This document shows, piece after piece, positions 11,941 to 39,400 of a stretch of 64,000 nt of DNA. The notes beneath the pieces were generated by a model. That model did not search any database. It had not been told where the DNA came from and saw only the letters and a list, made by a program, of their open reading frames with translations. The stretch's first letter is position 1, and every line of letters starts with the position of its first letter. Source of the stretch: Lingula anatina (taxonomy: Eukaryota > Animalia > Brachiopoda). The stretch spans positions 1,488,001 to 1,552,000 of the forward strand of contig CM120643.1 in assembly GCA_051362555.1 (NCBI GenBank). The letters run 5' to 3'. A program made the translations under genes and the position numbers.

Positions 11941-12164
11941 TGTTTTTGCTAACAAATGATCACGATGTAAGTCTGAACTGTTTTACTTCAAACACCATAA
12001 ATTTGTTTTATTGATTATCTTTATTTCAACAATAAATCTCAAAATTCAACATATGTTAATATGGGACATAGCTAAAGCTACCCTAGGTTCTAGATTCGGG
12101 TATTGCCAGCTCGATCTTGATTTCATATATAACCCATATCGCAATACCAGGCTCTAGTGCACAG

Positions 12165-15077: not shown

Positions 15078-15083
15078 TTTATT
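15078..15083 (-). terminator. Candidate polyadenylation signal AATAAA
   Basis: Minus-strand AATAAA about 235 nt after the stop codon. The hexamer is common in AT-rich DNA. Confidence 0.3.
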
Positions 15084-15317
15084 TGCCATATACTTAATAC
15101 AAGTAGTGATTATCAATAACAGTAAAGAACTCCAGTCTATGTACGGCGGAAACCAAAATAAAAAAAAATTAAACGAGAAAAAAATGTAGGTTGAGAAAAA
15201 TGAACATGTGATCAAATTTAAGTTACTTGAGTCTCAATAGAAACATCATGGTAACAGAAGGCGAGGGTGGCTACTACATAGCAAGTGTACCTGTATGACC
15301 ACTTCCACTGCCTTAAT

Positions 15318-15437
15318 TCACTCTGGATAGTACAGCCCTGGCCAGAAATACAAAGATTTCCTCAATGTTAGCGTCGATATACTTGATATCTGTCGGCAAC
15401 CATCTCGAGTTGGCATCTTGGAGACACTGTCGTTCAC
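15318..15437 (-). CDS. Exon 14: caspase p10 C-terminus and stop
   Basis: VNDSVSKMPTRDGCRQISSISTLTLRKSLYFWPGLYYPE* with the typical TLRK.LYF.P ending. Confidence 0.9.
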   Translation of the reverse strand: MNDSVSKMPTRDGCRQISSISTLTLRKSLYFWPGLYYPE

Positions 15438-18400
15438 CTTGTTGATAAACAATAACCAGTTGACATAGCAACATCAACCACTTTCTTTGAAATGTGTGAT
15501 TTTAAATTATATTTTGCTACTTTTCATAATTAACGTAATCGTCCAGTGTAAAGGGGGCTTAACTGAGATATTAGTTTACGCCCCCTGTGGGCGGCGTCCT
15601 ATCTGCGTTCCATAATACGGGCCCGATTGAGAGTAGAAAAATAATAATACCCAGTGTAAAGGAGGTTTAACTGCGCTGATCACATCAGTGCATTTATCTA
15701 TTCGGCTTTCGTGGGGCCGCAGAAGAACATGTATGTAAAACGTATGAAAAGATCCGTCTAATATTTGTAACTGGCGCATCCCAAAATAATCATCTGTCTC
15801 TATAATGTACGAAATCCTCCTATGCCGGTGTGACAGAAATGGTAGTCCTGGGAATGGAACTCCGGGCTCCCATACTGTTAGCACCAGTAAAGAATAGGGT
15901 TATTCGAAGTGTTGTGGAACGAAATTCACCGGTGCAAAGCAATGGAAAACGGACTACGGACGCAAGCGGACCACCGCTCCTGCCACACCTAGCTACTGGG
16001 AGTGATATTTGAGGGGACAACATTAACCATTTGTCTTTAGTTTTGTTTCAAAGAGAACTGTTGTAATACGTGATTACCTGTGTCAATATATCAAGTAAAT
16101 GGGTGTCACATGCTTTTTCCGAGAGCTCTTTAACCAGACACTGAATGAAAAACGTACCATGTTCAGTAGATCGCCAAGACTTGTCACCTGAATGGTAAGC
16201 AAACCTTACTTTAATGCCGGGTGTCAAACAAGCGTCACTTTGGTCAAAATGCAGCCAAGAAGACTATAACAGAAGAAATACTTTTCGGACGCCATCTAAT
16301 GATATTCACATCACACGTCCTTAATTTTTTTTCTACAAAAATGTGATGTATCAATAGAACAAAAAGTCACTAGAAACAAAAACACTCGACAATCTTACCT
16401 CTGGTCGTTGAAGTTACTAATATCATATCAGCTTTCTCTGGATTTGAGTGAGTTTCTTGCGGTCTCGGTGGCACTTGTTTTGTATTTAGCAACGGCGCAT
16501 TTTCATCCATACCTTGTGCAAAATTAAGAGATGTTTTTACATAGATAAAAGGCAGGACAAAGAAGTAATGAAGCAATTCCCAAATTATACTGACAAAAAT
16601 TTTTCACTTAATATTGTGCAAAAGAGAAAATTATTTACTGAAATATATAAACCACCGTTAGTATGACTGTTTAATAAAGCTCCATTTTATATTTTATATG
16701 ATAAAAATAAAAATATATAAAAACTCCCCCCCCCCCCCCAGATTTATAAAAGGTAGGATACAACATGTTTTACTATATCAATCATTATAACAATCACAAT
16801 ACGTTTAAACACAAACGCATAAAAGAAAGAATCAATAAAAACCTCATATCATACTTTACACACCAAATTCAAACTTGTCTGACATGAAGAACACAATAAT
16901 ACATCAACCTAGATGAATAGTACTTACTGCCCTGACACGCAGATATGAAGAACATCTTGGGTTTGCCGTTCAGTGTCGGGCACCTGGAAGCCTCAAAGTG
17001 TGCCAGAATTTGGTCATACCCTATGTGATTACCATCAGTGCCTATCACCGTGTTCTCTCCACCATGACTCAGGATCACCATGATGAAGGAAGAGTAAGCA
17101 CTGTGATCAGTGCTTGACTCACGTCTGGCTAGTTGGTCAATAGCCTAAATAGCATAATTTAAATATCTACATTTGATCATTTATGTTCATAAAACCGTTT
17201 TGTTTTATTGTATCATTAACTGACACCCCACTTCATATACCATAATGTGTGTTAATCTTCTTCAGATGTATGTCATTATCTGATAGTTTTAACTATGTAT
17301 TTTAAAAACATCGCCCAAGCAATCTAAGACATTTTGAGGCCAAACTGGAGAGTAATTGCAACAGTTTTTTTGCCACAGTGCTTTCCCAAATTGACAAACT
17401 AAACTCAGCAATGGTTGGCATTTCCTATATAGAAACGTCATAACGTAAAGACATGGTAAAAGTGAAAAAATAAATTTAATTGAGACATTCGTGGAATTTT
17501 GTTCTATACACATGTTTAAAAATGAATACAACTTTGAATTTATTGAATTTTATTTTTGGACACCCTCGCGTGTGAAATACATCTCTTTATATGTATTCGT
17601 ACTATAGCTAGTATACAAAATACGAAAATGCGGCAGGATAACTGACAGTTTAAGATATCAACGTACCTCAGCTGTCAGGTTGTCATGCTTCAACACCAAG
17701 TAATGTAACTGCCGAAATAAACTTTTCAAATGCTCAACATCCACCTCTGTGCCCTTCCTATCAAGGGAAAACTTATTGTCAAAGCTGACATTGTTGATGA
17801 TCACAGCTCTTCCCCTCCAATCTGTGTAGTTCTTGTAGACCTGTTGATTGCCAAAAAAATTTGGGAGCATTAACTGCAATTACAAAATTTTACTGGTGTA
17901 TCAAGGAGATAAGGTGTGAAACATTTAGAGGATGTTGTTATAAAACTGCAAATTTTCTAACAATAAATCTTTTATAAAGTTTGAATATAATATAATATAG
18001 ACTTATATATCAAAAATAAAATCTAATGAAGTGTAGCAACAAACCCGTTTAGCGTCATATGCCTTCTTCTCGAAGAGTTCAACTGTACAAGGCCAGACCT
18101 TAACTTTCTCCTCTCTGCTTGTGCCTAAAAGTGCAAAATGTCTCCCACGTCCCTAATTAATATCGATTTTATAGCGCATACTATGGTAAAATATTTGCCG
18201 GGAGCATCGCAATCCCAGTTAAATGGTTTCATTGTTCACTGTCTGCCAACCTTGGTCAAGATCATTGGGTCACTAGCTATGGCCTCCCGTATTTTTGTCC
18301 TGTTAATATGGTCTGGCCCCATTTGGTGCCCCCCCCCCCCCCCCCCCCCCCCGATGGTTCAAAGGCAGAATGCACCAGTTCCCATATTGCCCCCATGCGC

Positions 18401-21400
18401 ATGCGCAGTCCCTTGTTAAATTCGGTGTCCAGTAAATGAAACCATGTACAAGCGTGAGACCAAGACGAAAGTTGGCTTACTATATACTGTTGTCTATTTA
18501 TATTGGGATGCACGCGACAAGTACTTTTTTTTACGATTGCGACATGCGGCAGAACATAGCTTAGAGGTGACCCAAATTCTCAAACCGTTTTGTTACATGA
18601 TCACAAATTTTGAAAACGGTTAAGGGACTTTAAATAGAAGAACTTTAAAGAGTTTACTGTTACAAAAGTATAACAGAATGCACCGTGGTGTCAAAGAAAC
18701 CAGGCTCACAACTGTGTAATACAGCGTATGAGAACGACACTGTCTTGTCAGGTTTGTCAAAATTAACGTCAGGCTCTCTGATTAAATCTCAGCGGAGCGG
18801 TTTAATAGCTAGGCCCCTGCAAGACTGGCGCTTGTGGTCGGCGGGTACACCATTAGGGTATTAGCGGCATTGCTTTCAAGTGGGTCGGCCATATTTGACC
18901 CGCGGACCAATTAGTCTAAGATCGCATTCACAACGAATTGAGCCATGGCTTTACAAATTCTGGAACTTAATATGGCGGACGTACATGAAAGAACAGCCGC
19001 CTAATCTTTTAATGGTCTCTCCACCTATCACGCCTCCCCATGCGTCGTCCCTGCAGCGGTACAGTCATTAAATTTCGGCTACAATGGGACGACACATGGG
19101 GAGGCGAGTGAGAGGCGGAGAGACCATTAAAAGATGAGGCGGTTTTTCTTACCTGCCTCCAGACTTTGAGGACTGCGTGGTTCTTTCTCCACAGCTGAAA
19201 TGATTGAAATGCAAATTTATTATTGTTATCTTTTTTTATTTTTTTTTTTTTTTGACATTTTATAGCACAGTCTGAAATTCCAATACATTATGTCCATTTC
19301 CAACAAGAGAACTTGTTTTTTTTTTTCTAAATCACTTACTTGTAAACCAAACACGATATGGTTTCAGCTGAATCTCTTCGTCAGCTTTCTCTACGCATAC
19401 ACGGATGGCATCTGTTTTTAGAACGGTCTCTGCTTCTATCGGAATTTTGCGTCTCTTATCGTTTACCCTGATAAAGTAGCCAAAATGCATTCTGGGACAG
19501 TATGTCTCTTGAAGATAGGACAACTCGTCTTCCACTGTTTGTCGTGCGTTGAAGTATATGTTACGCTCAGCGTTATCTATCACTAGTTCAATGTCCTTTT
19601 CTGCAGTGAAGAGATGAAGCACAGATGCTTTGTCTTCCAGACGGAAGGAGGCGTGGTCAAAACCAATATCTGGGATGCCATTTACACAATGGTAAGGTTT
19701 ATACTTCCTAAGCAGACGGATGATCAAACGATGGAATAGCCCTGGAGGAAAGAAGCCGTGAGGGAATGAAATGAATAAAGATATTTCTCGAGCCTTCTCG
19801 GGGGGCCAATATTTCACCAGGTCATTGGATTTCAGCATGCAAGGCACGACGAATTTTCTCTTTCCAGAAGGCAGCATTGGATTTTGAACTGATTTAGATA
19901 TGTCCAACATCAGGTCAAAATGCTCCATAAGTTGAATCACTTCGTTTTTCATGTCGGTCATCTTTTCCTTCTGCAGATATACATCGAACACCTCCTCGTT
20001 CAGTTCTCCTTTTTCCAGACTTCGCTTCAAGTAATCGAGGCGATCCTTTCCACTTTTACTAACAGGCGGGGTCATGATGGCAGAAAACAGATCTGCTAAC
20101 CACTGTGGATCCAATATAACGATATTTTCCAGTCCATCCACTTTGAAGTGTAGGACGTCTCCCAGATGATGATGGTAAGGAATAAACATTTCATCTAACT
20201 CCGCGTCACGGATTCCAACTAAGCGCGCCATATCACGCAGTTCTTTAATATATATGATCGGCCTTTCTTCACTCTTCTTTGCCAAATCCAATTCCAACTG
20301 GAACCATCTCACTGGGTGCATTTGGCGGCCAGCTTCTCTGTCTCTGCTATAGCCACAAAGATGCTCGATCTCGCTTTTTATTTCATCAAACTCCTCAACG
20401 TCGGCCAAGTTACTTATGGCAAAACAACGGTAGACGTGTTCTGCGAGTTCCTGCTTGTCCTCCAGATAGTCCCTGAGTTGATCAAGTATCTCATCAGCGG
20501 CTTCCTATAAATAACACGGTATGGGGTTTAAAATGTTCAATTTCATATAAAATGTTAAGTTTGCCTTTGGAAAAAAAACATTATCCTTTACACTCACATT
20601 CAAGTACATTTCACTTAAAGGCATAATAACTCTTTGTATGTATATTTCACAATAAAAACATTGTGAGTAACTCATAGAAATATAATATATTCTGTTTTAC
20701 CACAAAAACAGCAGTTATAGCTATTATTCTGATATCTGAGCTTGTCTTTAGACCACGTGACCTCCATTGATGGCTATAGACTGTTAAAATCTCTTAAGAG
20801 ATTTTAACAAAAAAACAAACTTTTTAGAAAAAAAAACTGGGACTAATTTTTAATGTAAAAATGAATTCATTAATCATTGGTAAGAATGGGAAAATTGTTG
20901 TTTACTCCAGGAAAATTCATTTTTTGGCCGAAACGAAGAGTTATTATTGCTTTAAACAAGAGGGAGGAAAGGGGTCTGCTTGTGTGTGTGAGATAATAAA
21001 ATCCCAGAGAAGGAAGGAGCGAAAGACGCTTATCTCGACACCAAATCATGTCAACCAAAAACAGTCACCTTTTTCTGGTTCTGGGTACAAGTAGGTACTT
21101 AGTTTCTAGATTTCAGTATTGGCAACTCGATCACGATTTCTGTATAACCCTTATCAGAAATTCTGACTGTAGTCATACTAGGGGTGTGTTCGGCAACATT
21201 TTGCCTGGGGCGTTTCCATATTTGAAAGCCACATGTCTCGAACGTCACAGATCTGTCCCGCTTGGAGCTGCCTTTCCCGCCTTGAGCTGACGTCATCTCG
21301 TGCAGACGAGACAAAGACGAAAAGAGGCTGACCCGGAGATTGAATTTTGAAGTAAGAATACCTTGCAATCGAAAATCGATGCCACAACACAAGCCCCTTT

Positions 21401-24400
21401 CTGCTTTAAAACTAATTTTGGTGTAGCCATTGCGCAGTCCTTATAGTGGTGTTGGACATACAGTGTACATTAGTGGGTCTGAATTGGTCTTAAAGTGCAA
21501 TTTTAGACTTAAACTGGTATGAAGCGATCTTAAAGATTAAGTAAGGAGTCTTAATTTTTAAGTTTTCATTTATGATAGATCCAGATATTTTGGCTTACCT
21601 GTTAACTGTCTTTTATGTCTGTGCTCTGATGTCAAAACTTTAAAAGTATGCTGCACTAGTACTAGTATTAGACACATTTATGCGCATGTCAGTAACAGTA
21701 GACTGGGTCGTGTACGGCTTACGCCATATTAAGATTTTATGTGATTCGAACGCTACGAAGAATTCTGATTTTTAAGTTATATACATATGAACTAACCAAG
21801 ACTAGGCTGACAACATTATTGAAAGCTTCTAAAAATATTCTTTGAAAAACAAAACAAAACAAAACAAAAATCTGACTATATCTAGTGACACCGCCAAATC
21901 GACCTCTACCTATACACACTGAACACTTTTAACACCAAAAGGATGCATGGCTGTAAACGACACAATACATCACGTCAATACGGTGATCGCACACGCACAA
22001 GTGCATAGAGCCTATGACAACGATAGTGATGAGATAATGACATGTATTACAGCGCACCATTCTGACACAGATAAGATGTGAAAAAGACTATAGATGAGTG
22101 AATGGACGCTTGGTCAGAAACGATTATCAGCAATCTAAAGCAGATCCGTGCCAAGGACAACGCCGGTGGCGCCAGGAAGACGCAGAATAGCAGGGGTGTC
22201 TAACGCTCGGTTTTTGAAACTGCAACGGGTGGCCAAAGACCAATATTATTTCGTGAAACACTCGTAAAACAACAAGATTACGATATCTGTTGCCTCGCCG
22301 AAACATTTTTGCAAGGGAAAGATGAATTACAAATTGATGATTATTTCTGGATTGATAAAAACCCGCACCAATCTGCTTGTTAATGCGCATAGAGGATCGG
22401 GTGGAGTTGGCTGTTTACTACGGAAAAGATTGGTATCAACCTACGACGTTAAAGTCCTTGACTGTGAGATGAAAGGAGTTGTTGTTTTCTAAAGCACAAA
22501 CAGAAAAAAACAACTTTTTCTTGGGTGTATGTTACCTTCCCCCAGAGAACACGCTCCTAAAACTGACACTGAAAAGCATTTTTAAAGCTTGCAACAGATA
22601 TATATGGTTACCAAAATTTGGGAAATATAATAATTTATGGTGACTTCAATGCGCCTGCAGACGAGATCGAGATAGGCTGTTGATGAAATAGAACCGCGTA
22701 AAAATTTAGATGAGCATACGAATAGCCATGGAACGCACTTTTTAAATTTACTAACAGACATAAACATCTGCGTGCTTAATGGTAAAATAGGCGAGAATGA
22801 CAAGCATATCATAAGCCTCGGTCACAACCGGCCGCACGGGCTCTTACGGGCTGTTTGCGTCCAGATTTTGCGCAGAATCTCACGTCCCACACAAGTCCTT
22901 ACGCAAATTCGAGCTAGCCGACAGCCCGTAAGCACGTACGGAGGATGTTGGACATGTCGAAAAGATTCTACGAATAGTCTGCGAACAGCAAGGCCGCAAG
23001 CGTAACTTGCTCCCCTCGCCCGGAGTTAGCAAGAGAGACGCGCGTAGTGCAAGACGCACGTCGCAAGCAATGAAGAAGCAAATGCCATTTGCGTGTTGAG
23101 TAAGACACCAGCCCTCTGAACTAAAGAACAAAGTGGACAGCACATTGGGAATGCGTCGCACGTGCGTCACCCCCACGCAGTAGCTGCGAAGAGATGCACG
23201 AAGCTAGATATTCAAACAATTTTGACATATCTCAGGGAAGATAAATTTTCTCCAGAAGCTTCACTCAAAGAAAAAGGGGTAATTAGAAGAGCCAGTAACG
23301 ATAACTACAAGGTAAATCATTTTCTTAAAATTCATATTAACCTTAAAGTTTTCCGTGGACTTCTATTACCAGTACAGCATGTCCACAAAACCATTGTCAC
23401 TTCCAACGCACGTCGGCGGCCTAAAGACATTAGGAAGCATGCTCTAGCAAATATAATGAGTGGATATATACTTTCAGTACGCATATTATTTGGTTTAGCA
23501 AAATGTTAATTGCTGTTTTCAATGCTTGATATGCGTTTGGAAATGTTATCTTTATTTATGAATTATCTTTTTTTTTAGCTCGAAAGAGGAGAACATTTCT
23601 AAAAAGTGCAGGATAAAAACCCAAACAAAATGTTGAAACCAATGATGAATCAGGGGGTGAAGGCACCTCTTCAATGATAACTGAAACATCATGGAGAAAA
23701 GTTATGACAAACCAGGAAGAAATAAAGGACATTGTGGCTAACATGCACTCCTCGGTCATAGGCATGCATATTTGTGCGGGCGTATCTTCATGTGAGCAAC
23801 AGTGTGTGCGCACGTGTTGTGTTAAGAAACGTTAATTACATACCATGATATATATTTATATAATAATTGTAACACTATGATGTCTGTTAATAACAACTGT
23901 AATAATACGTAATGTTCTGTTATAGGCGGACATCTCGGGCGGGATAAAACTCTTGATAAGCTTCAGAAAAGGTACTACTGGCGTAATATGGTCGAGGATG
24001 TTAGAAAATTCATAGCCTGCTGCGCAATTTGCCAGAAGGCAACACACAAATATAAACAAAATGACCCACCTCTCCAACCAATACCTGTCACAACGCCAGA
24101 AGCCTGGAATATGGTAAGAAATATTTGTTCCTTATACCCCCTTTACACTTGACGGCGTCCTTTCTGCCACCATGAAATTTGGCATCGCTGTGGTCTTAAT
24201 AAGATGGCACGATCATTGATTTTGTATCAGAATGAATGCTCAATGACCGGCCAGTTGTCGGCACGTAAAGTATTATAATTTTTTAACTCTCAAATGGGGC
24301 CGTACTGCTGGACGCAGAAAGGACGCCGTCCAGTGTAAAGGGGCCCTTAAGGCTGGGTCACACTGCGCTTGCAACCTTTTGGCAACCTCTTTGCAACCAC

Positions 24401-27400
24401 AAAATCTGGTGGTCGCTTGCGATCACTTTGCGACCTAATTTGCATATTTTGATCGGCAAGCAGTTGCTAACCGGTTGCAACAAGGTTACAGTATGGTATC
24501 TGCAACCTCTTACAGACAATCTTCAAGTCAGAGGTTACCAGTCGCACACCGTTAGGCGAGCGATAAACAACCTGTCAGCAACCACTTGGAGACTGAAAAC
24601 CGGTTGCAGGACTGTAGCGATCGCTTGCCAACTGGTAGCAGCAAGGTTGCACAGACTATATATATTTTATAAGTTGTGACGATAGCTGCCTTCTCGTAAA
24701 TTTCCCTCTCGGATGACAACAGAGGGAATATTTTAAACATTATACAACGATTGGATCCGTTCTGTAGCAGCTTCAAATGATTTAATATTTTGAATATTAA
24801 AGTATGATTCTGCTATGAGATTCTGTTATAACGTCACAGTCGATTTCTGTACTACCAATATTGTCAAACTTACAATAATAAATAAGAAATATATTTGTAC
24901 TATATATTGGCATTTATATCAAACCAGTGGTGTAATAAAACACATATTTGGATGTTTTTTCAGCCTTATTAATGTAATAATAGGCATGCATAGTTTCTTT
25001 TTTCAATACTTGGTATCTTTGAGGTCGCAAGGCCTGTGCAGTTACGGTCACACTGAACATAAAACCTCCTTGCGACTTGCAACTGTCACCGGTTGCAGAA
25101 AGGTGGGCGACAAGTTGCAACAACTCGCAAAGTGGTCTCCAAATGAACGCTGGGTTACTATCCGGTCGCGCCGGTTTTCGGTGCAGCACCGAAAACCTCC
25201 TGGCGACCGAAAAGCCTATTTGTGGTATCCAACCGGTTGCTAAAAGGTCGCCGACTGCTTAGCAACTGATTTGCGACCGATTGTGTGGTTTTCCCTTTGT
25301 CTTTGTAGCCCCAAGCGTTACACTTACAATACAACATCTTTAAATAGTGAAGGATCCTGCGCGTCATCAATTTGTTTCCGTCCTTGTGGTACGAATTCTA
25401 AGTACTGGGAGGAAGTTAATTTGTATTTATTTGACCTTCTTTATATTGGTGACACTGTTTTACTGTTATAAAAATGCCTGACAATTAAATTTATTGTAAA
25501 AAGTATGAATCAAACTTTGCTATTTACTTTTTTTCTCTGCGCCCGCCTATTTGCTTAATTTTTCTTCCATTGTGACTTGGCAAATTATGACTTGGCAAAT
25601 TAAAAAGTAAGATATTTCCGGCTGCTTTAGTCATTAAAAATGTTTCCAGTAGATTTGACAACAATAGTTGTCAAAAATTAGCCATGATATAGGAATGGAT
25701 AAAAAGATAACAGTTTATCGTTTACATTGTGATAATCATTATTGATTGTTTTGGCACTTTATTTGATTTGTTTTTAAAGTCTTTCAATTGTTGGTTATAG
25801 AAAAACTCGTTTTCCTTAAAAAAAATCAACTAATTCTTCTTCCTCTTTAATAGTAAATTTAGGCTCCCTGTCTCCTCCGCGTTCATCATCTTTCGGTTGA
25901 TCCTCTTCGTGGGAAGCAGAGTCTGTTGGAACTTTGTGAAGAACTTTCTTCACGGGCATTTGCTTTCTCAAAATACATTCTGGCCACCCTTCCCACGCTG
26001 TTGGATGACATACTGGGGACTGAAGACACGGGCTCAGCGGCTTCTATTTACAACACTTTTAGTCAAGTATGGTGGCTGATAGGGACTCATACATTTATTT
26101 ATTTTATTGAAAAAAAATACTTATGAAAACCTTGTAAATAAATTTAAAAGGATGACAACAAATACAATCTACGTTTTAATTGAGAAATAACGATTTTTGT
26201 CAAGGTATTTAGAAAGCCTTAATGGCATGATATAAATGAAAAATATATTTATATATTTAGTGGCCACCATCCTACGCTTATTTTATCACGGTTGCTTGCG
26301 ACCTTCTCGCGACATGTTTTCGAGTGCATGCGAGCTGTAAGAAACCTGTTAGAGACCAAGCGACTAAAGACCGTTAATCGACCATGAAGTTTCAACTGCA
26401 ACCTCCTTGCGACCTGCTGCCCACCGCTTGCAACCGGTTAGTAACCTGTTTGCAACTAAGCGACTAAAGACCGTCAATCGACCGTGCAGTTACAGGTGGT
26501 ATGCGACTGGTTTTAGTCTGGTTACAGCGACCTACTGGCAACCAAGAGGAGACCTATAGGCAACCTCTCAGTTACCAATCGTTTTCATTATCAGTCGCAC
26601 TGGTTGTCGGTGCCAAAAAAATGGCCTTCGTGTGTCAACGATCGCAGGCGACCTGTTTGCAACCTAATGCGACCACTTTAAAACCTAGGGCAACCTCCTT
26701 GCGGCTGAGGTTGCAAAGAGGTTGCCAAAAGGTTGCAAGCGCAGTGTGACCCAGCCTTTACATCGTTATTATCCATGCAGATAGCACTCACACATTTCAT
26801 GCTCGAGGCTTGTTTGTCAAGAAAGCACACCAGCAGATGCTATTTTCTTATATTTATGATTTTTTTTCTAAATAAAAGTAATTTTGAATTTCATCAATAT
26901 TCAAGAAAACATAGTTCGTACACTATCATTATTTTTTTTTTCAGATTGGAATAGATTTGATTGGCCCTCTGAAGGAGACCACTAATAACACTTTGTACAT
27001 CTGCACTGTGGTTTGTTACTATTCAAAGATGGCACACCTCCAGGCATTGCAATCTAAAGAGGCAACTGGTGTTGCAAATTTTTTGCTTGATTTGTTTTTG
27101 GTGTAGTTTTAAATTTGGCACATGAAACTTGCTTTAAAACATTAAATACCATACTTGAAAATCATCTGAACTTTGTATGATTTACTTACTGCCTATTAAT
27201 ACTACTACAAATCCAATGATTATGGGTTTTAAGTTTTTTAATGACAAAATAATTGAGAACGCCTGCCATATGCTTATTTCTACGAGTGTATTTATACGTA
27301 TACATTCATTTCATTGTTTATGAACCATAAATAAATCTTAGCGTTTTTCGTTTTAAGTTTAGGGTTCCCACAGACAATACTGTCAGACCAAGGTCGGGAG

Positions 27401-30400
27401 TTCAATAATAAACTAATCCAACAGATCACAGAGAGTGGATCAGATGTAAAAATTATGTAACTACGAAGGTTAAAACAAAAAAAAAATGTGATCAAATATC
27501 TTTCGATCGAAAGTTAAAAAGCTATTCGCGTAAACACCAAAAGGATAAGCCCTGCGCTGAAAGTAAACAGAATTATTGCGAGTTCTAGAAACAAATAGGA
27601 AAGTTGGATATAAAGAGGCGCAATACGGTACCTGGGAAGTTGTTGATGACAAGAAAATAATAACTGATAAAAGCTAGGCAAGTGCTTACAAGATGGCAAA
27701 GAGACTACCAGAAACTCTTTAATAATGTTTCACCCGCCAGCTTCTATGAAAAATTCTTAAATTCGGTCATCGCCGCGGAAAACGATGAGGGGTTACATTT
27801 AAGGAACTCTTCCTACGAAATTCAGCTTAATGGCCCTATTAGACGAGATGAAGTATATAACGCAGGAATGTGACAGAAGAATGGAAATTCGGCTTTGTTA
27901 AATGTCATTGTATCTAATTATATGACACCGTTTATTACAGGGTGAAATTTTAGTTATATCAATAAAGGCTTTTTATACCACAAAGAGAGTCTGTCTGTTA
28001 CAGATATTATTTATTTTTCAATTCATATCTTAATTAATTAGCAAAATTAAATATGCTAAAAGTTGGATTTTGTTCTTCAGGGAGGACTGTAAAGCTACCG
28101 TACTAGGATTAAGAATATGTACATTTACCCCGGGGACCATTTGAAGATTACACTGCGATTAATGCGGTGGAAAATACAATAGAGAGAGTGTATAATAATA
28201 GGGTCGCTAAACGATTGTTGACGGCATATAGTAACTAGCCTAATCCCCTGGTCGCCTGGGTAGCCACGCCCCCTTAGAGTACTTAAGTAAACAAACGGTC
28301 TCCCGTAGCGAACTATCCTTTTGTTCAACAGCTTCGCGCGTGCAGCTGATTATGTATGTAGTGACACTATAGCTAACTGCATATAAATTTGTGCTAGCTG
28401 TTATTTGATTCATTCTGCTGTGTCGGTTCGTTGACTTATGTTTTTCTGAAGATTGGTGGTGCAGATTTTGAGTGCTTAATTATTTACCCTCCTTCTAACA
28501 AGAGAAAGGGGAAGGGAGATAAAAAGAGAGAGTGTCAAATGAAACGGGTAATGAGTAATACATTACATTAAATAAAGGGAGTCGCGGTGGAAGAAACGAT
28601 AGACTGTTTTGCATCAAGGTATGCCATTATAATCCGACATGGCCCATAACATGATCCATAACATGACTCATTGTTGTATACCTTATATTTGTGCCGACTT
28701 ATATTTTACTCTCGTTCATTTCGTGAAACTATTTCCTTGAATAAAGTTTTGCCTGTATAAATTAATTTTGTGACATGAAGTAATTAATAAAACGCGCCTG
28801 TTGAAAAGGGGTGTTTTCGTAACTAATAAAGGTTCACTATTCAGAAAAAGATCGTCGCCGTTCGTCGCCGCTACCTTTAGGAAAGCGTACCCTCCGCGTG
28901 GATCACCGGCATTTTTGATTATCTGACAAATTAGGGCAATTTACGTTTTAGCTAATAATTCTGAATTTACTAATATTTTGGACTAAATTCGATGTCAGAT
29001 TCATAGCAATGACTGAGAGCCGCCAGAGTAACTGTTTAATTTTCTAAACCAATCAAACTAGAACGCGTGGCGATAAAATGTGTCGCTAGATCTTGTAAAC
29101 ACTCAGCGAAATGCACCTAGTGACTATGTTCAATGTGCCGCCACTTAATTGCTTTCTCGATTTCATTAATTGACGATAGTAATTGCAGATAACAAGGAAG
29201 AAGAAATGCTGAAGACAAAACAACGTCGGGTCTTTGTGTGACTTTCTCCCTAAACACTTTTTATGTTGCTGTCAAAGAAAAAGGAGTCTAGATAGCGATT
29301 ATTTAAACCACTGCTGCTGCTTTTGCAGGTAGACTTCCTCGTTTATCATTTAAATGCTCCCCTCCCCCAGCAGACCCAACTTGATGCATGTACGTCTTGG
29401 TAGCTATAGTACAGATCTTGGTTCAAATAATGAAAGGTTTAAGCACAAAACGATAATTTGAGGCTATTTTTTCATTCAAGACATAAAGTATCTATGGTGT
29501 GTGACAATAGGGACTTTACAAAGCTTAATTTGTCCTTAAATATATATTCCAGTAGCATAGGCGAGCGACGTAATTGTAACCTCAACTTGAGGTATCCTCG
29601 ATGAAAGCGGAGTACAAAAATTCAATTTTTTAAATATCGATTACAACATGCTGTACAATGATATTGAGACTAAAGGGTTTAATGGACTTCTTTGCCTTAA
29701 AAGCAATTCATTTCAAAATTAAAAGAAACAGTTTTTTCGGGGAGCGCGGGTAGACAGTTTACGTCAGGTGATTCGTTAAAGTCGAGGAGTGTTTCACTAT
29801 CAATGTTAATCATATATGTCATTAAACACTATAAGAAAGTTTTTTTGTTACGATCTGCAACAATTGTTCATTTATATAGCAGGGCGAAGTTAAAGCCAGA
29901 GGTAAATAGAACCTAATACCGTAATCCTCCTCGTCCATTTATTTAAATCGTATCAAAACGTTTGATACACAATGTTCATTAAATTCATAATTTTGGCGAT
30001 TTATTAAAACCATATTGGTACATAAAAGTTTAAGATTAGCATAAGTTAAGCAACAACCAGTATGAAGAACAACACCCTTTTTAAATGAGGCAAGACACCC
30101 TCTTCACACTGATTATAACCTTGAGAAAGACATTATGCAACTTAAGGCAAAGGAGTTATGCAAAGTTCTTTCAACTCGTGTTTGAATACAACATATTCTT
30201 TGTCACTTTTACAAGACAATGGAGGCGAGCAAGTAGAGTAATTACAATATACAATAAAAAGGACATTAGTATAGAAAGCTTACTTCGGGTCAGCCCCTTG
30301 CTTGTTCGAATGAAAGAGATAGATATCGCGCCGCGACTCCCTTTATCAAACCTTCGTGTGTTTGTGTAAAAGTGTGAAAGACAGGCAACGGTCTTTAGTC

Positions 30401-33400
30401 GCTGTTGATATTGTTCGCGATTAATATTGAAGTATAACTCCTTCGCCTGCATGTAAACGTGTTACTTTTCCTCATGTTCTCTATATTTCTTTTAGGTGGT
30501 TGAGACAATGGGATGAGATCGATAAAAGTAAAGGTTAATCTAAACAATTAGATGCGATTTTTGTGAAATGACTTATTAAGTGATGTGCATGTACCTAGCA
30601 TGTTTAAATTCTTGAATTTCTGATTTGTTAAATCTTTAATACACGGCTTCATATATGTATTACTCTCAGGCCTTCGATATTATTGTGTTACACGGGACTA
30701 CTGGAAACCTGAAGCACAGGTCTACGGAGTCTTGTTATCCTTCATGCAGTTTTATGGCTGGGATGAACACTGCGAAGTAGAAACAGGCTTTACTTAGCTT
30801 TACTTGATGCACGACAGTTTAAACAAAACCAGTCTGCAAGGCTTGCTTTGATTTGGCGTTAACCTTACACTGGTTTTAAAAGAACAAATATAAATATGTT
30901 CGATGGATTAAATACCGGCTTCGTTATATTTAACTAAATGCGTCCATTTGCACAGTTACACAGGTAATATTTGTAAGTTGTCTGTCGTTCAGCACGCATT
31001 ATAGGCGAGTAGCTAAATAGTGACGGTGATCAATCCAAGCTCAATCTTGGCAAATATCGTTTACAAAATAGATCATGTTGAATAAACTTAATTACGCTTT
31101 AATAAATAATCAACACACGGTTCGGTTATTGTCACTTGAAAGCTTTCGATCAAAGACGTTCAATGAAATCACAAATCATTTGACGATTAAAAATGGACAT
31201 GTTCAAGGGACAGTTTTTGTTTCAGATAAAGGGACTTCAGGTTCAGGTAGAGGGTTCAGTTACGTGTTTCATCGGATGATAGCATCACGCCCTAGGTCTA
31301 AGCGAGTTGAATAGAAGCTTTTTATCCAAACATCCTATTCCTAACTACTGAGTTAGGACAAAGGTCTAGTAACATGTACATGTACTGTGCAATTACTATT
31401 TATGGATCAGATGCATACCTGATTGTTTTTCCTCTGGTGTCGCACGTATGCATCCTTTCTTGAGTGATCTAAAACAAGTCGCTAGTGTACCATGTTTCTC
31501 ACTACATAGCAAAATATGTTCGACATGGTGTTTCTGAACGGCAGCCGGAGACACAGTAATTGTATAGGCATGCTTTAAGCTTGTTCGAGAGATAATAACA
31601 GTCGGGTTTAACAATAGATAGCGAGCTATAGTAAGACCCCCTCCTCTTTAACTGATGATTTTCACTTTTAATTGACCGTACTTTCGTATATTGTATGATC
31701 ATACAGCCAGACTTCCCCCTGTTGCACGTTGTAGTTGGATTGTCATTGCGCCTATGTCAATGCACCTCATTTAATTTCAATATTATAATAAAAGCATAAT
31801 ATAAGTAATATGTTATTTCCTTATTCCTCTTTCATTATCATTCATGTTTTATAAATACTTGAAAGCTTGAATGCAGATATTTCAAATTAAAACGTAAGTA
31901 CATAAATAAATTATACATTTATAAATTAATGCAATAGGAATTTTTTGAGACAGATTGATGCTGACGCTCATGCATTTCAACCAAACAAACAATAATTAGT
32001 TCAATTTTTGACTGCGGAAATTTTATATAGGATGAAATAACTGATAACAAATTTAACTAGCAGTTTGTTAGCAACACTAAAAACCAGCTGCGCGTGCCAA
32101 ACTAGTGAACAAAAGGACAGTTCGCTTCGCGTGGCACGCCTTAGCATGGGTTTAGCCTCTTCAAGCTATAATCCTATCGCTGCATCAAACAATAGGGACC
32201 TTCTGGCTGATGTATCCTGCTGTTAATTACACCTAGTTACAGCGGATTGTCACGCTCGCGCTGGGCCACAGAAACCGGCGTCATGGGGTTCACTCGTATT
32301 AAGTATTGTGTTATTCCACCTAAGCTATTGTGTTTGTGCGTTCGAATTTTGAAGGGATTTATACGGCCCTCCATTGTTTGTCCGCCCCCTTCTATTCACA
32401 AGATAGGGATTAAAATATTTCGAACGTTGTTACACCGGTGTACAACGGAAACAAAATTATTCCGACCACTGTACCCCATGAATATGTATGAATAGTGAAC
32501 AAGCTCTGATACTTAGGGCAAATACAAGGTGTACACTCCAAAAGTCTAAATGACTCGCAATGTCTCGTAATATGAAGAGTGCAGTGGTACGGATGGGACG
32601 TATGGTATAAAACGAATCGAACAATTGAATAAAAAACAGATTTATTACCTCTGAAGCCAATTTGTCCTTATGAGTTCCAATAATCAAAACGTGTGGGATG
32701 ACGCTCTTGTTTTCTTTTGATTTTCTAACTGTGTGCATATGGATAGAGTTCAACCAATACACTATGAACTCTGAAAAATGTAAAAGAAACATTAAGGTAA
32801 AGAAGACTGTTTATCACAATTTCCCCAACAAAAATAACACGGCCAGTTCTGTTGATTATTAACAGAAGGCGCAAACAGAGGAACGGTCGGCGTTTCCAAT
32901 TCAAATTAAAGGATAGTTGCACTTGCATTAGTGCTTACAGATAAAACATCTAACATGGTCTTTCACAGTTACCTAAAAAAAGGCATCTAAATGTAATCTT
33001 CATCATACCTTTCACGGTCTTCTCTCCTCTGTATACCGGTATTTTGGTATCGAGGTCTACGTCAAGCCTGAACACCAACAAGTAGATGTTCTGCTCTGAG
33101 AGGAAAGTCTGGTGAGTGGTGTAGTAAACATCTTGACCACCAAAATCCCAAATTGTAATCTGTTTCTCAGGATCCACAGGTTCTCCACGAGCACCTGACT
33201 CTATTTTTTGCACAAGGTCCGGATGGAAATTCTTGAAACTGGCTGTCTCTGCTATAAATACGATTAATTTGGAAGGGTCTTATGAACGTGGTTTACGGTA
33301 TATTTAAGTTAGGTAACATTGGGAGAATTCACATCGAGAGGAACCGAGGTCTAGTAAGATCGCTACCTAATATGGCGGACCTACATGAAAGGGAAACCGC

Positions 33401-36400
33401 TTAATTCGTTAATGGTCTCTCTATCTCTCACACGCCTCTCCGCGCGTCGTCCCTGAAGGGGCTCACTAATTAAATCTCGGCTCAATTCAACCTGTCGAGG
33501 GACGATGCGTGGGGGAACCGAGGGTGAGAGGCGGGGAGACCATTACAGGATTAAGTGGTTTTCCTAACATGTAGGTCCGCCATATTTAGGTAGCGGCCTT
33601 ATTAGACCTTGACTCATCTCGATGTGAATGCTCCCATTGATTGCTGAAAGAGTGGTGACAATGAAATTGCTACTTCATTGGCCGTAACATATTCCGCACT
33701 GTCTTATACCAAAGAATACTGTTTCATACATTCCCCAGATATTACGATATTAAGTGGACTCTTACGAAATGGATGGACCACAGTCGTGAAAAAGGTGTGC
33801 ATTTTTTTTTTTTTTGGAAAGTAAAGAAATATAATTTATTGTTTCTGTTCTATTAAAAAACCGTAAGTGAGGAACATGTACCTGTTTCTGACTCCCGAGT
33901 GTTGCTATAAATAACCTTCTCCACCTTTCGGGATTCCACTGGTGGCTTTTCGTCCACTTGGTCTACCCGGCGGAATGCGTCTGGTTTCTGTATTCCAATT
34001 ACCATGTGTTGCACCAGGTGATCTTCTGGGTCATCTGAGGATTGTGAAAAGAACATTCATATTGACATGATATTTTCTAACCCAAGATGCATCAGGTTAT
34101 GGAGCTGTGTGACTTATAGGGGCCATAGGGCCTAGAGCCTGGTTTGAAAAATATACAAGACGAAGGTTTACAAAAATATGAAGAATCTTGGAAAATGAAA
34201 CTGTCACGATCGCAGGTGTCTGAATATTGACAAGAAACCCACAAAGCTTTTGAACGAGCACTTTTTCAGCAAAGTTGTTGATAGCCATACATGAATATGC
34301 ACTGATGGTACCCCCCTCGTCTTCCAGCCCAATGTGGTGGGAAAATCTTAACCACTTTAGAGCTTATGGAAAAGTACAGCGCCCCTAATTTTGCTCCATT
34401 CTGTTCTTTCCTTCCCAAATACACTAGTGTCAAATATGTTTTCTAAGTCTCATTACCTTTCCCTCTGACCCAACTAGATCGGCCGTCTTTATGGACGATG
34501 CACCTATGGCGGTATATCTTCACACCAGGTGTATATGCGTCTGTTTCTTCGTCATATTCCTCTTGAAGGAGGCGCTTGACGAGATGAGTCTTCCCCACAC
34601 CGTAGGGACCAACAATAGCTACTCGCTGTCTGTAAACTGGGACTGCACCACTGGCACATAAGCGGTCAAACTTTGCTCTAAAATCTGGTAATAAACAGAA
34701 CAGGTGTAACGTGACAAAGAGTCCCCCATATCAGAGAGTCCGCTTCCCATTCATTTGAACAGGTGAGCTTTTTCCTAGATTTTGATCCACTATGATCAGA
34801 CTAAACCTTAATGTTATAACTATATGGAGTGCGGACTTTGTGTTACACGGACTGGACCCTCAGTTTCAATATACCGGTAATTTATGACACTGCTACAGGC
34901 AACAGCACGTAGTAACTTTTCGACATGATTAACAGACGTTACGTGCGATCTAGCTACGTCTTAGCCGGATGCAAGGTACATAAAAACCGTGCGCCCAAAA
35001 CGTAGTTGGGACCTAGGCTTTACGACCAACCGTGGTTAGAGTGTCCGCCTCCGGAGCAGGAGGACGCGGGTTCAAGCCCGTCCGGGGCCATACCAGCCCT
35101 TTATAAACGATACCTGCGGTCTCCCCGCTTGGCAATCAGCACTAAGGGGTTGAAGCAGGGACCTGGTCTGGCAGTGCAGAAATGAAATATTAGCTCTGAG
35201 CGCCTTTTCATAGTTAGTCGCACTGGTTGTCGGTACACAAAAATGGCCTTCGTATGTCAACGATCGCAGGCGACCTGTTAGCAGCCTTATGCGACCACTT
35301 TTAAACCTAAAGGCTGGGTCACACTGCGCTTGCAACCTTTTGGCAACCTCTTTGCAACCTCAGCCGCAAGGAGGTTGCCCTAGGTTTTAAAGTGGTCGCA
35401 TTAGGTTGCAAACAGGTCGCCTGCGATCGTTGACACACGAAGGCCATTTTTTTGGCACCGACAACCAGTGCGACTGATAATGAAAACGATTGGTAACTGA
35501 GAGGTTGCCTATAGGTCTCCTCTTGGTTGCCAGTAGGTCGCTGTAACCAGACTAAAACCAGTCGCATACCACCTGTAACTGCACGGTCGATTGACGGTCT
35601 TTAGTCGCTTAGTTGCAAACAGGTTACTAACCGGTTGCAAGCGGTGGGCAGCAGGTCGCAAGGAGGTTGCAGTTGAAACTTCATGGTCGATTAACGGTCT
35701 TTAGTCGCTTGGTCTCTAACAGGTTTCTTACAGCTCGCATGCACTCGAAAACATGTCGCGAGAAGGTCGCAAGCAACCGTGATAAAATAAGCGTAGGATG
35801 GTGGCCACTAAATATATAAATATATTTTTCATTTATATCATGCCATTAAGGCTTTCTAAATACCTTGACAAAAATCGTTATTTCTCAATTAAAACGTAGA
35901 TTGTATTTGTTGTCATCCTTTTAAATTTATTTACAAGGTTTTCATAAGTATTTTTTTTCAATAAAATAAATAAATGTATGAGTCCCTATCAGCCACCATA
36001 CTTGACTAAAAGTGTTGTAAATAGAAGCCGCTGAGCCCGTGTCTTCAGTCCCCAGTATGTCATCCAACAGCGTGGGAAGGGTGGCCAGAATGTATTTTGA
36101 GAAAGCAAATGCCCGTGAAGAAAGTTCTTCACAAAGTTCCAACAGACTCTGCTTCCCACGAAGAGGATCAACCGAAAGATGATGAACGCGGAGGAGACAG
36201 GGAGCCTAAATTTACTATTAAAGAGGAAGAAGAATTAGTTGATTTTTTTTAAGGAAAACGAGTTTTTCTATAACCAACAATTGAAAGACTTTAAAAACAA
36301 ATCAAATAAAGTGCCAAAACAATCAATAATGATTATCACAATGTAAACGATAAACTGTTATCTTTTTATCCATTCCTATATCATGGCTAATTTTTGACAA

Positions 36401-39400
36401 CTATTGTTGTCAAATCTACTGGAAACATTTTTAATGACTAAAGCAGCCGGAAATATCTTACTTTTTAATTTGCCAAGTCATAATTTGCCAAGTCACAATG
36501 GAAGAAAAATTAAGCAAATAGGCGGGCGCAGAGAAAAAAAGTAAATAGCAAAGTTTGATTCATACTTTTTACAATAAATTTAATTGTCAGGCATTTTTAT
36601 AACAGTAAAACAGTGTCACCAATATAAAGAAGGTCAAATAAATACAAATTAACTTCCTCCCAGTACTTAGAATTCGTACCACAAGGACGGAAACAAATTG
36701 ATGACGCGCAGGATCCTTCACTATTTAAAGATGTTGTATTGTAAGTGTAACGCTTGGGGCTACAAAGACAAAGGGAAAACCACACAATCGGTCGCAAATC
36801 AGTTGCTAAGCAGTCGGCGACCTTTTAGCAACCGGTTGGATACCACAAATAGGCTTTTCGGTCGCCAGGAGGTTTTCGGTGCTGCACCGAAAACCGGCGC
36901 GACCGGATAGTAACCCAGCGTTCATTTGGAGACCACTTTGCGAGTTGTTGCAACTTGTCGCCCACCTTTCTGCAACCGGTGACAGTTGCAAGTCGCAAGG
37001 AGGTTTTATGTTCAGTGTGACCGTAACTGCACAGGCCTTGCGACCTCAAAGATACCAAGTATTGAAAAAAGAAACTATGCATGCCTATTATTACATTAAT
37101 AAGGCTGAAAAAACATCCAAATATGTGTTTTATTACACCACTGGTTTGATATAAATGCCAATATATAGTACAAATATATTTCTTATTTATTATTGTAAGT
37201 TTGACAATATTGGTAGTACAGAAATCGACTGTGACGTTATAACAGAATCTCATAGCAGAATCATACTTTAATATTCAAAATATTAAATCATTTGAAGCTG
37301 CTACAGAACGGATCCAATCGTTGTATAATGTTTAAAATATTCCCTCTGTTGTCATCCGAGAGGGAAATTTACGAGAAGGCAGCTATCGTCACAACTTATA
37401 AAATATATATAGTCTGTGCAACCTTGCTGCTACCAGTTGGCAAGCGATCGCTACAGTCCTGCAACCGGTTTTCAGTCTCCAAGTGGTTGCTGACAGGTTG
37501 TTTATCGCTCGCCTAACGGTGTGCGACTGGTAACCTCTGACTTGAAGATTGTCTGTAAGAGGTTGCAGATACCATACTGTAACCTTGTTGCAACCGGTTA
37601 GCAACTGCTTGCCGATCAAAATATGCAAATTAGGTCGCAAAGTGATCGCAAGCGACCACCAGATTTTGTGGTTGCAAAGAGGTTGCCAAAAGGTTGCAAG
37701 CGCAGTGTGACCCAGCCTTAAGGCAGCCTCCTTGCGACTAAGGTTGCAAAGAGGTTGCCAAAAGGTTGCAAGCGCAGTGTGACGGGGGCTTTAGATCTAC
37801 TGTCCCACCAGGACATCCCAGCTGTAGGACATATATTGCTGTCGAACATAATTTTCATTCACATTTACACAGGACGACAGGGACGGGTATCAAAATGAGT
37901 TAATTGAAGTATCAATAGCTATATGCTGTAATTATACAATTAATATTGCAATCTGTTTATTTCACTGTATTTCAGGCCTGCAGGCCAAGAGTACATCAAT
38001 TGAGTTCTATTTATAATACTGAGCTGACTACACAGGGATATATATCATAAATGACACTAATTACTTATCTAAAAGAACATCTCTTAATTTCTCTGCAGAT
38101 AAACAGATTGCAAGGGATATATATCATAAATGACACTAATTACTTATCTAAAAGAACATCTCTTAATTTCTCTGCAGATAAACAGATTGCAATATATTGC
38201 TGTAATTATACAGGTTGAAAAGGGGCGTGTAAAATAATGTAACTTGGAGTTTAGCATCCAATCGTAGACTCAACGACTATCTGAGGTAGCTTATCAATTC
38301 AGTCATGAGCTCCAAATTTTGTTGACATACAGGGTTACTACTTAATATGGAATATTTTTTATCATTGTTATTTTTGAGTGCTGATTAAATATTCTTTGGC
38401 TTGATTCATCAAAAAAAGTATGTCACTGAGTGATAAAAACATCCAGTCTTCTGTTGTGAGATATTTTGGTCAATAATATCACATCTGACATAAGATGCCA
38501 TTCAAAAGAAAGGAACACCCCCAGAAAACCATGTCATCAGCTTGATGTCAATATTAACTTTAAGTTAAGATATTAAAGAAAGTGATATGTTACACAGTCA
38601 AAGAACTCACTACAGTTAATCATGAAAAGTCAGTAATTACGGGTATGACCTCCAGCAGCCGCTTGCAGCGCCCTCATCCTACATGGCATACCCTGTGCCA
38701 CGTTTTTTAGAGTTTGGATGGGGATATAATTCCACGCAGTGATATTTGCCTGTCGCAGTTCATCACTATTTACCGACCGATGACCATAGCTATTAAATCT
38801 GTGAGTTACTTTTGCCCAAAGTTTTTCAATTGGATTCAAATCGGGAGAGTTTGCAGGCCAGGGCAGTTGCTGAACCCATTGGTTTTGAAGAAAAATAGTG
38901 ATTTTGCGAGCTCGATGTGGTTGCGCAGTCGTCTTGGTATACAAATTTGTTCCTGAAGATGACTCTTACCAATCGAAGCATTGTTTTCTGTAGAATGTCT
39001 CTGTAAGAATCCTGGTTAAGGTTGCCTCCTAGAAAAAACAACTGGTCCTGGGCACCGACATGATATGCTCCCCAAACAGAGACGTTACCACCCCCCGCTT
39101 CCATCCTAGGCAGTGCACAATCATCGTTTTATGCCTCTCGTACACTTCGGCAGACACGGAATCTACCGTCCATATCTGGCCTCATCACCAAACCCATGCG
39201 TTTTTATACAAGGGCAGAAATTGCCAAAAAGACCACCCCTCACATTTCTGACCACAGAACATGCAACTGAATGCATTAATTGTTTCGTGAGTTGTGCAGT
39301 AATTAGGTAACACACTTGGCTACACATGGAGTGACACCTCAGTTTTGGATTTTTAAAAAAAAGTAAGAGAAAAAATAAATATTTTGTAGAAAATTTACTT

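Follow-up and report, generated by a model that had tools for sequence, protein, structure and literature searches.

A Predicted HEPN-Roc-COR-Caspase Gene in the Brachiopod Lingula anatina: A Possible GTPase-switched Protease without a Death-fold Prodomain

Can an animal caspase be switched on by a GTPase module carried in its own chain? Textbook animal initiator caspases are described as being switched on by death-fold platforms (PMC9221191). The question is raised by a locus of Lingula anatina (assembly GCA_051362555.1, contig CM120643.1, positions 1,488,001 to 1,552,000), a stretch of 64,000 nucleotides that we call the window. An earlier note on this DNA had marked 15318..34684 as a Roco GTPase gene with a caspase fused after COR. 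We describe here a predicted HEPN-Roc-COR-caspase gene, and we lean, by a little, toward the reading that its Roc-COR stands in place of the CARD of an ancestral caspase-Y and pairs two molecules to switch the protease on.

RESULTS

Gene structure

By eye and by script, we assembled 13 exons on the minus strand, separated by 12 GT-AG introns, into 3351 joined nucleotides (nt) encoding 1116 residues, with the sole stop codon at the end. The domain order in the predicted protein is HEPN, Roc, COR, two linker exons and caspase (Pfam HEPN_DZIP3, Roc, COR-A and Peptidase_C14). The HEPN exon forms the start of the gene and lies about 7 kb upstream of the feature that had been noted. The exons, with Pfam expectation values (E) or identities to Lingula RefSeq proteins, are the following.

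41304..41886, minus strand: first coding exon, DZIP3/hRUL138-type HEPN (PF18738, E 1e-32), ending in phase 1
34457..34684, minus strand: Roc exon 1 with the G1 P-loop and G2 (Roc, E 4e-6; 75/76 residues identical to LOC106162424)
33882..34034, minus strand: Roc exon encoding the partly disordered insert that separates G2 from G3 (48/51 residues identical to LOC106162424)
33009..33251, minus strand: Roc exon with G3, WDFGGQ (Roc, E 8e-8)
32649..32770, minus strand: Roc exon with G4, GTHKD (40/41 residues identical to LOC106162424)
19340..20504, minus strand: G5 and the entire COR in a single exon of 1165 nt (COR-A, E 9e-22), mosaic
19153..19194, minus strand: linker exon 1, 14 residues, phase 1-1 (8/14 residues identical to LOC106167140)
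18045..18124, minus strand: linker exon 2 (VWPCT), start of the caspase, phase 1-0, with a donor (GTTTGT) weaker than the other donors
17667..17840, minus strand: caspase exon 1, Arg179 equivalent at 17759-17757 (PF00656, E 5e-9)
16928..17144, minus strand: caspase exon 2, catalytic His at 17066-17064 and Cys at 16937-16935, Ser for Gln283 (E 2e-15)
16399..16512, minus strand: caspase exon 3, encoding the short intersubunit linker and the beginning of p10 (23/38 residues identical to LOC106167140)
16078..16187, minus strand: caspase exon 4, Trp340-Arg341 equivalents (E 1e-5)
15318..15437, minus strand: last caspase exon and stop (25/39 residues identical to LOC106167140), with AATAAA 235 nt beyond, at 15083

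The Pfam Roc profile (PF08477) matched two of the four Roc exons, the COR match was to PF16095, and Peptidase_C14 matched three of the four caspase exons scanned. Roc is followed directly by COR, and all of the nucleotide-binding motifs G1-G5, the set used for Roco proteins in PMC6337361, are present. The claim that the Roc motifs are intact was borne out, since each lies in frame: GPYGVGKT at 34610-34587, YTPG at 34535-34524, WDFGGQ at 33150-33133, GTHKD at 32678-32664 and AISN at 20420-20409. In the structure model of the closely related LOC106162424 protein, the best fold matches were CtRoco RocCOR (3dpu), LRRK1 and LRRK2, and the predicted local distance difference test score fell below 50 at residues 301-321, which belong to the Roc insert.

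The COR-to-caspase join

The COR exon (20504-19340) ends, as had been read, in a GTAAGT donor in phase 1, and read-through would stop at TGA 19334-19332. Of the two short exons that had been placed after it, both are present and the second holds VWPCT; the first junction, however, runs from 19340 to 19194 and not from 19340 to 18124. When the linker of the paralog LOC106167140 was aligned blind to 17841-19339, it landed on both short exons, and for each of them 0 of 200 shuffles scored as high. The linkers of two more distant paralogs landed on linker exon 2 at non-significant scores (27 and 28 of 200 shuffles).

The proposal of a caspase straight after COR, with no death-fold prodomain between them, agrees with the relatives. 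The same layout is found in Lingula LOC106167140, LOC106175244, LOC106171421 and LOC106152255 (two near-identical records) and in one annelid protein, Owenia CAH1786849.1. Of these, LOC106171421 and the Owenia protein align from end to end (40% over 1351 columns), Bcl-2-like N terminus included; they are collinear, and therefore the COR-caspase layout recurs in two phyla. No match to CARD, DED or Death below E 0.01 was found in 2212 open reading frames (ORFs) of the window or in the gene model, whereas the same profiles, as controls, matched 54, 59 and 39 fetched proteins; a hidden death fold in the window was rejected on these scans. For a separate caspase gene that would begin at a coding first exon, a simple rule (an ATG with a consensus phase-1 donor) yielded no candidate between COR and linker exon 2; a non-coding first exon is conceivable, but the first in-frame Met lies inside p20.

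The case for a spliced fusion is built on the layouts of relatives and on the linker match. From these, we consider it very probable that the transcript splices through to the caspase, and the locus holds an intact reading frame and likely a real fusion, beside which a short isoform may exist.

Several observations weigh against this conclusion. The fusions in the paralogs come from automatic gene prediction. Four same-species RNA runs, of which 6-25% each was used over the region 14950-21600 (the HEPN-Roc and Roc-COR junctions lie outside it), contained no read joining any two exons among the splice joints listed, with seven weaker joints unlisted. Exon depth in these runs was near zero, and nearly all depth fell on short intronic repeats at 20640-20960 and 18875-19150, where it stems from further copies of 90-95% likeness. 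On caspase exon 2 there are a few reads, each with at least three other differences, several of them silent, and one paralog residue, and for that reason they likely come from another, close copy. In addition, the nearest RefSeq model, LOC106162424, has no caspase, and the intron after COR carries a stop and two AATAAA signals.

19195..19339, minus strand: 145-nt intron after COR with an in-frame TGA and two AATAAA (19240 and 19221), by sequence reading

This intron is possibly the end of a caspase-less isoform. The last two observations would also fit a locus at which the fusion is real but most of the product is HEPN-Roc-COR without a caspase, terminating at TGA 19334-19332 or in a short tail, with the caspase exons left as a minor isoform or a silent cassette. 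Isoforms X1 and X2 of LOC106162424 stop 55 residues past COR, linker exon 2 has a weak donor, and a caspase fragment with a Cys-to-Asp change is annotated beside the Roc-COR-HEPN gene LOC106168738. Nevertheless, none of the seven downstream exons is disrupted or out of phase, all are homologous to the fused tail of a paralog, no ATG with a consensus phase-1 donor was found between COR and linker exon 2, and the RefSeq tail of LOC106162424 was not found in the window; we regard a mainly caspase-less product as unlikely.

Descent and catalytic residues of the caspase

The caspase placed after COR has the His-Cys dyad, p20 and p10, and the S1 residues Arg179 and Arg341 of metazoan C14A enzymes. 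A structure model of a paralog shows COR, a short disordered linker (residues 594-605) and then a confident caspase domain, whose fold matches caspase-3, -7 and -8 with template modeling scores of 0.84-0.91, by target.

In a tree of 55 catalytic domains (5 partial or aberrant rows of 60 were left out), six COR-linked caspases and two Owenia caspases formed one clade (97/94). It was nested in a lophotrochozoan CARD-caspase clade (98/94) with Lingula caspase-Y3, Y5 and Y6, for which the anchors were XP_013414814, XP_013405490 and XP_013416922, named caspase-Y in the supplement of PMC11463336. A mixture-model tree of 42 rows, leaving out 18, gave support of 83 to the COR-linked clade and 99 to the enclosing caspase-Y clade. 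By these sequence comparisons, a single old lineage seems to unite the Roc-COR caspases of brachiopod and annelid. The window caspase is best described as caspase-Y-derived rather than as caspase-Y proper, because the CARD prodomain is absent.

Three points count against this placement. The top Protein Data Bank sequence match of the caspase is caspase-8; the approximately unbiased (AU) test, which rejected a caspase-8 placement of all eight caspases of the COR clade (p 0.032), did not reject it for the three that carry the motif SACQ (p 0.063); and the trees contained no verified caspase-2 and no Owenia CARD caspase-Y, so that a single origin of the COR-linked caspases is likely and not firmer than that. 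An origin from caspase-8 or -9 was tried and is disfavored by both trees, with the AU result borderline. The description of this part of the gene as caspase-2-like is not supported: the caspase groups with caspase-Y in trees without a verified caspase-2, and caspase-2 is reported as lost in Lingula (PMC11463336). Its descent from a CARD-type initiator caspase is supported by both trees.

The p20/p10 unit is complete, as the earlier note had it, but it departs from the canonical enzyme in ways that the note had not described. According to PMC5322338, the S1 pocket is built by Arg179, Arg341 and Gln283. At the Gln283 position the window, LOC106167140 and LOC106175244 have Ser (SACQG rather than QACxG), whereas Gln stands there in 51 of the 55 rows; Asp specificity therefore cannot be assumed. 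All three SACQ proteins retain His, Cys, Arg179, Trp340 and Arg341, and the sequence makes it likely to us that the caspase is an active, dimer-activated, initiator-type protease, its P1 preference probably loosened or shifted by the Ser.

What speaks against an active enzyme lies in the same residues. The Ser occurs in only 3 of 55 caspases, all in the SACQ subclade; the conserved Asp six residues after the catalytic Cys is Glu in the window; and the intersubunit linker, at 31 residues the shortest of 11 compared, holds one poorly placed Asp, followed by Glu. Because of these changes, protease activity may be low. They would also suit a fused caspase that is weak or dead and serves as a scaffold or decoy, binding true caspase-Y or caspase inhibitors of pathogens, with Roc-COR localizing the protein without gating catalysis; c-FLIP is an example of such a caspase-like protein. 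The replacement of the Asp after Cys by Glu or Ala and the long branch of the SACQ clade agree with a decoy. On the other hand, His, Gly238, Cys, both Arg residues and Trp340 are kept in three paralogs whose caspases are just ~50-70% identical, and we judge a decoy to be decidedly unlikely.

The COR exon and its exchangeable tails

Among the matches listed, the top five long relatives found with the COR exon are Lingula anatina RefSeq proteins of 54-91% identity. Ahead of COR, LOC106162424 and the window agree at 432 of 443 residues (~98% over the first 750 residues of the window protein), and they use the same HEPN-to-Roc junction: 192 of 194 residues of the HEPN exon are identical, and the RefSeq model splices that exon to the first Roc exon. 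Given this near-identity and the shared junction, the window gene would be another allele or a young paralog of LOC106162424. Seven of the 11 differences before COR lie in a stretch of ~100 residues between G2 and G3 (a count to which no statistical test was applied), and this stretch of Roc is a candidate sensing surface. By eye, the caspase-less tail of LOC106162424 contains a segment resembling linker exon 1, with a stop eight residues later; its RefSeq model may for that reason be a truncated allele or a model cut short.

Within COR the likeness to LOC106162424 changes near residue 300-310, at about 19600-19575: 223 of 226 residues are identical over COR residues 75-300 and 54 of 77 over 310-388 (Fisher p 2e-12). 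A comparable drop separates LOC106168738, which has a HEPN tail, from LOC106152255, which has a caspase tail (201/222 over residues 75-300 and 46/84 over 310-388), and both drops far exceed those in other pairs. The histories of COR and tail also disagree in Lingula: LOC106152255 has a window-type COR (58%) yet a canonical QACQG caspase, and LOC106175244 a distant COR (24-28%) yet a SACQ-type caspase. Three HEPN-tailed paralogs are 68-70% alike in the last 80 COR residues and 48-61% alike to others. The simplest reading of these protein sequences is that recombination inside the long COR exon carries the end of COR along with the downstream effector exons. Against it stands the greater variability of the last 80 COR residues in nearly all pairs; since the end of COR evolves faster so generally, part of the drop is a matter of rate.

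The mosaic exon, the near-zero read depth and two identical inverted 2416-bp elements in the introns flanking the Roc exons would fit a locus that arose recently as a silent recombinant between two paralogs, or a chimera of the two made in assembly. Such an origin seems very improbable to us, given 3351 nt without a stop or frameshift, the continued grouping of the last 80 COR residues with LOC106162424 (100/99), and one RNA run whose reads on the window-type end of COR have a likeness of at least 92%. The same run also has a few reads on caspase exons.

The COR exon had 1122 relatives at E 0.001 or better among representatives at 50% identity, and the best 150 were examined; 79 of 85 fetched proteins with tails of at least 60 residues were scanned with Pfam, a single gene being represented by two isoforms. 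Directly behind COR, the first domain was Death in 23, HEPN in 9, GT4 in 5, caspase in 4, trypsin in 3, and CARD, DED and TIR in 2 each; kinase, patatin, ankyrin, Ig and a weak RHIM occurred once each, and 24 had none. By this tally, the slot after COR usually recruits an effector or is one. Death folds normally recruit caspases, and since the slot most often holds a death fold, fusion to a caspase would short-circuit the recruitment step. The ESM Atlas gave tentative matches, all below 0.9: clusters of mollusc Roc-COR proteins that carry HEPN, Death or CARD, and a cyanobacterial COR-CHAT cluster.

Some further tails were observed. The Roc-COR paralog LOC106170498 ends in repeated units resembling the linker exons, with a RHIM match that is weak and falls below the cut-off (E 0.007); this is possibly an amyloid-signaling tail. 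The Lingula caspase fragment XP_023933245.1, which has Asp for the catalytic Cys and whose accession adjoins LOC106168738, is possibly a leftover or an alternative cassette. LOC106171421 and Owenia CAH1786849.1 combine Bcl-2-like, Roc, COR and a canonical QACQG caspase, three apoptosis-related modules per chain (the Pfam Bcl-2 match is to the Owenia protein only). For experiments, this pair is arguably a better choice than the gene in the window. In Owenia CAH1787639.1, a remnant of a Death domain precedes a caspase of the Roc-COR clade; its accession adjoins that of a published ROC caspase, CAH1787638.1, and the region is possibly Roc-COR-Death-caspase.

The HEPN exon and the surrounding window

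The HEPN exon matches the DZIP3/hRUL138 profile and has an intact RNQHSH (Rx4H) at 41457-41440, with a polar residue after the Arg as in the Rx4-6H motif defined in PMC3710099; it is a likely RNA-cutting domain. Between HEPN and Roc lies a remnant of an NB-ARC ATPase (39898-40707, minus strand) that ends in half a TPR repeat (a weak match, E 0.001). Part of it could serve as an exon.

39954..40661, minus strand: possible optional exon, NB-ARC ATPase remnant, 708 nt, phase 1-1 (PF00931, E 8e-8)

This exon is in frame with the HEPN exon and Roc exon 1 and is skipped in the RefSeq model; its inclusion could give HEPN-NB-ARC-Roc-COR-caspase. The remnant looks like a relic of a HEPN-NB-ARC-TPR gene, the first exon of which has been taken over by the Roco gene.

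Two inverted elements of 2416 bp at 24345-26760 and 35308-37723, which we take to be PIF/Harbinger-like, are 100% identical, with terminal inverted repeats flanked by 3 bp of TTA/TAA. The four Roc exons lie between them, an arrangement that could favor exon skipping, circular RNA or inversion. Broken remnants of Tc1/mariner-type transposases, 87% identical and inverted, lie at 38323-39095 and 49493-50276. Downstream of the gene, at 7296-11950, there is a tandem duplication of ~2.3 kb (92% identity) with no Pfam match in the ORFs scanned. As to neighboring genes, a scan of 96 window ORFs, which short exons would escape, returned just the transposase remnants, the TPR remnant and matches below the cut-off.

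DISCUSSION

Proposed mechanism

Initiator caspases are described as monomers that need dimerization for activation (PMC9221191), and Roco dimers as forming through the C-terminal half of COR (PMC6337361). Because initiator caspases dimerize, and because the half of COR that dimerizes is the one that changes with the tail, Roc-COR would be a built-in, nucleotide-controlled dimerizer of the caspase. We consider it fairly probable that pairing of Roc-COR uses the second half of COR and that the short linker brings two caspase domains together. The earlier note had proposed GTP-controlled activation through a COR dimer. Activation by dimerization is a sound expectation, because the caspase descends from a CARD-type initiator, but GTP may be the off state: CtRoco is reported as a dimer when empty or GDP-bound and as a monomer with GTP (PMC5714945). 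By analogy with CtRoco, and in a choice that is close to even, the GDP-bound or empty state would be the dimer, so that GTP hydrolysis or loss would fire the protease and GTP binding would hold it off.

The same fusion might work with the opposite polarity or with none, if GTP binding or recruitment to membranes clustered the protein and activated the caspase. LRRK2 is recruited to membranes and dimerizes there, with its cycle under debate (PMC6337361), and the Lingula Roc, having a long insert between G2 and G3, need not follow CtRoco; the direct measurement on CtRoco, however, gives monomers with GTP. We hold such a switch to be improbable.

The N-terminal HEPN might be a second effector, or an RNA sensor, on the same switch. 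HEPN RNases commonly work as dimers, and one switch could therefore fire both ends of the protein. The role of the protein might be innate immunity or infection-triggered cell death, with tails exchanged by recombination within the COR exon. An immune role is suggested by the domain company: DZIP3-type HEPN expansions (PMC3710099), haplotype-specific HEPN and NACHT repertoires in the pearl oyster (PMC9646362), and, in Aplysia, the occurrence of Roc-COR alongside TIR or Death domains (PMC9334734). Against this account, no LRR or other known sensor was found in the LOC106162424 protein or in 96 other window ORFs scanned.

Relation to known systems

Exon shuffling has reportedly occurred in brown-algal ROCO genes. 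ROC-caspases are already in print, for Owenia (PMC11463336) and, as a prediction, for bacteria (PMC8195603). Horkan et al. 2024 (PMC11463336) describe one caspase with a ROC prodomain, Owenia fusiformis CAH1787638.1, as a species-specific member of the caspase-Y group and possibly a prediction error. In their list the prodomain entry is blank for CAH1786849.1 and for Lingula XP_013381226.2, and their supplement has no entry for XP_013401300, XP_013412607 or XP_013407220. Like the window protein, CAH1787638.1 has a caspase-Y-group caspase and Roc instead of CARD, a comparison made by description, the sequence used being that of CAH1786849.1. As described in the accessible text of that paper, it comes without COR, a mechanism or a test, and the window adds the N-terminal HEPN and the Ser at Gln283. 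The layout shared by brachiopod and annelid argues against taking the Owenia ROC-caspase for an annotation error or for a form confined to one species.

Kaur et al. 2021 (PMC8195603) predicted bacterial counter-invader proteins of the form LRR-AP-GTPase(Roc)-COR with at least 24 C-terminal effectors, including caspase. These share with Lingula a Roc-COR core, a swappable C-terminal effector and several paralogs per genome with different effectors, and in Lingula, too, the effector C-terminal to COR varies across paralogs. The bacterial systems, in contrast, have an N-terminal LRR sensor, whereas the window holds an animal gene with introns, without LRR, and with a metazoan caspase-Y-derived protease and an N-terminal HEPN. 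The window protein would work like the bacterial AP-GTPase-COR conflict systems but is no member of them.

LRRK1, LRRK2, DAPK1 and CtRoco have the Roc-COR tandem, the G1-G5 motifs and the matching fold in common with the window protein; their output is a kinase or a death domain and not a protease, identity is 12-17%, and the window protein has no LRR. With caspase-2, -8, -9 and caspase-Y, it shares the caspase fold, the dyad and descent from a CARD caspase. Unlike the CARD and DED initiators, it has no death-fold prodomain, so that recruitment to apoptosome, PIDDosome or DISC would not apply, and its dimerizing module is built in. In Lingula itself, LOC106167140, LOC106175244, LOC106171421, LOC106152255 and LOC106162424 belong to the same family and are all named "uncharacterized," and none of the retrieved RefSeq models combines HEPN and caspase as the window does.

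We found no paper on a Lingula Roc-COR-caspase or on any HEPN-Roc-COR-caspase in a literature that was thin in subscription journals; Figure S1 of PMC11463336 and the source data of Figure 6 of PMC8195603 may list such proteins. Nor did we find, within the literature searched, a form with two effectors, a lineage common to brachiopod and annelid, the changed S1 pocket or the swapping of tails.

Implications

Taken at its widest, the locus could point to ancient GTPase-gated caspases of brachiopods and annelids that read the GTP state of the cell and activate initiator caspases without any death fold. Lingula would diversify them in the manner of a set of immune receptors, swapping caspase, HEPN and other effector cassettes in the COR exon, so that each effector moves together with the dimer-forming end of COR, the window protein firing an RNase and a protease of altered P1 preference from one switch. 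We put this forward tentatively, as a doubtful but possible account. Lingula's group is reported to be without APAF-1 and caspase-2 (PMC11463336), and a caspase gated by Roc-COR, if true, would be another route of activation in such a group. Its caspase output would also offer a natural, easily assayed read-out for a debated matter in the LRRK2 field, namely the nucleotide state in which an animal Roc-COR is a dimer. The swapped tails, finally, point to an overlooked Roco-based immune repertoire in invertebrates.

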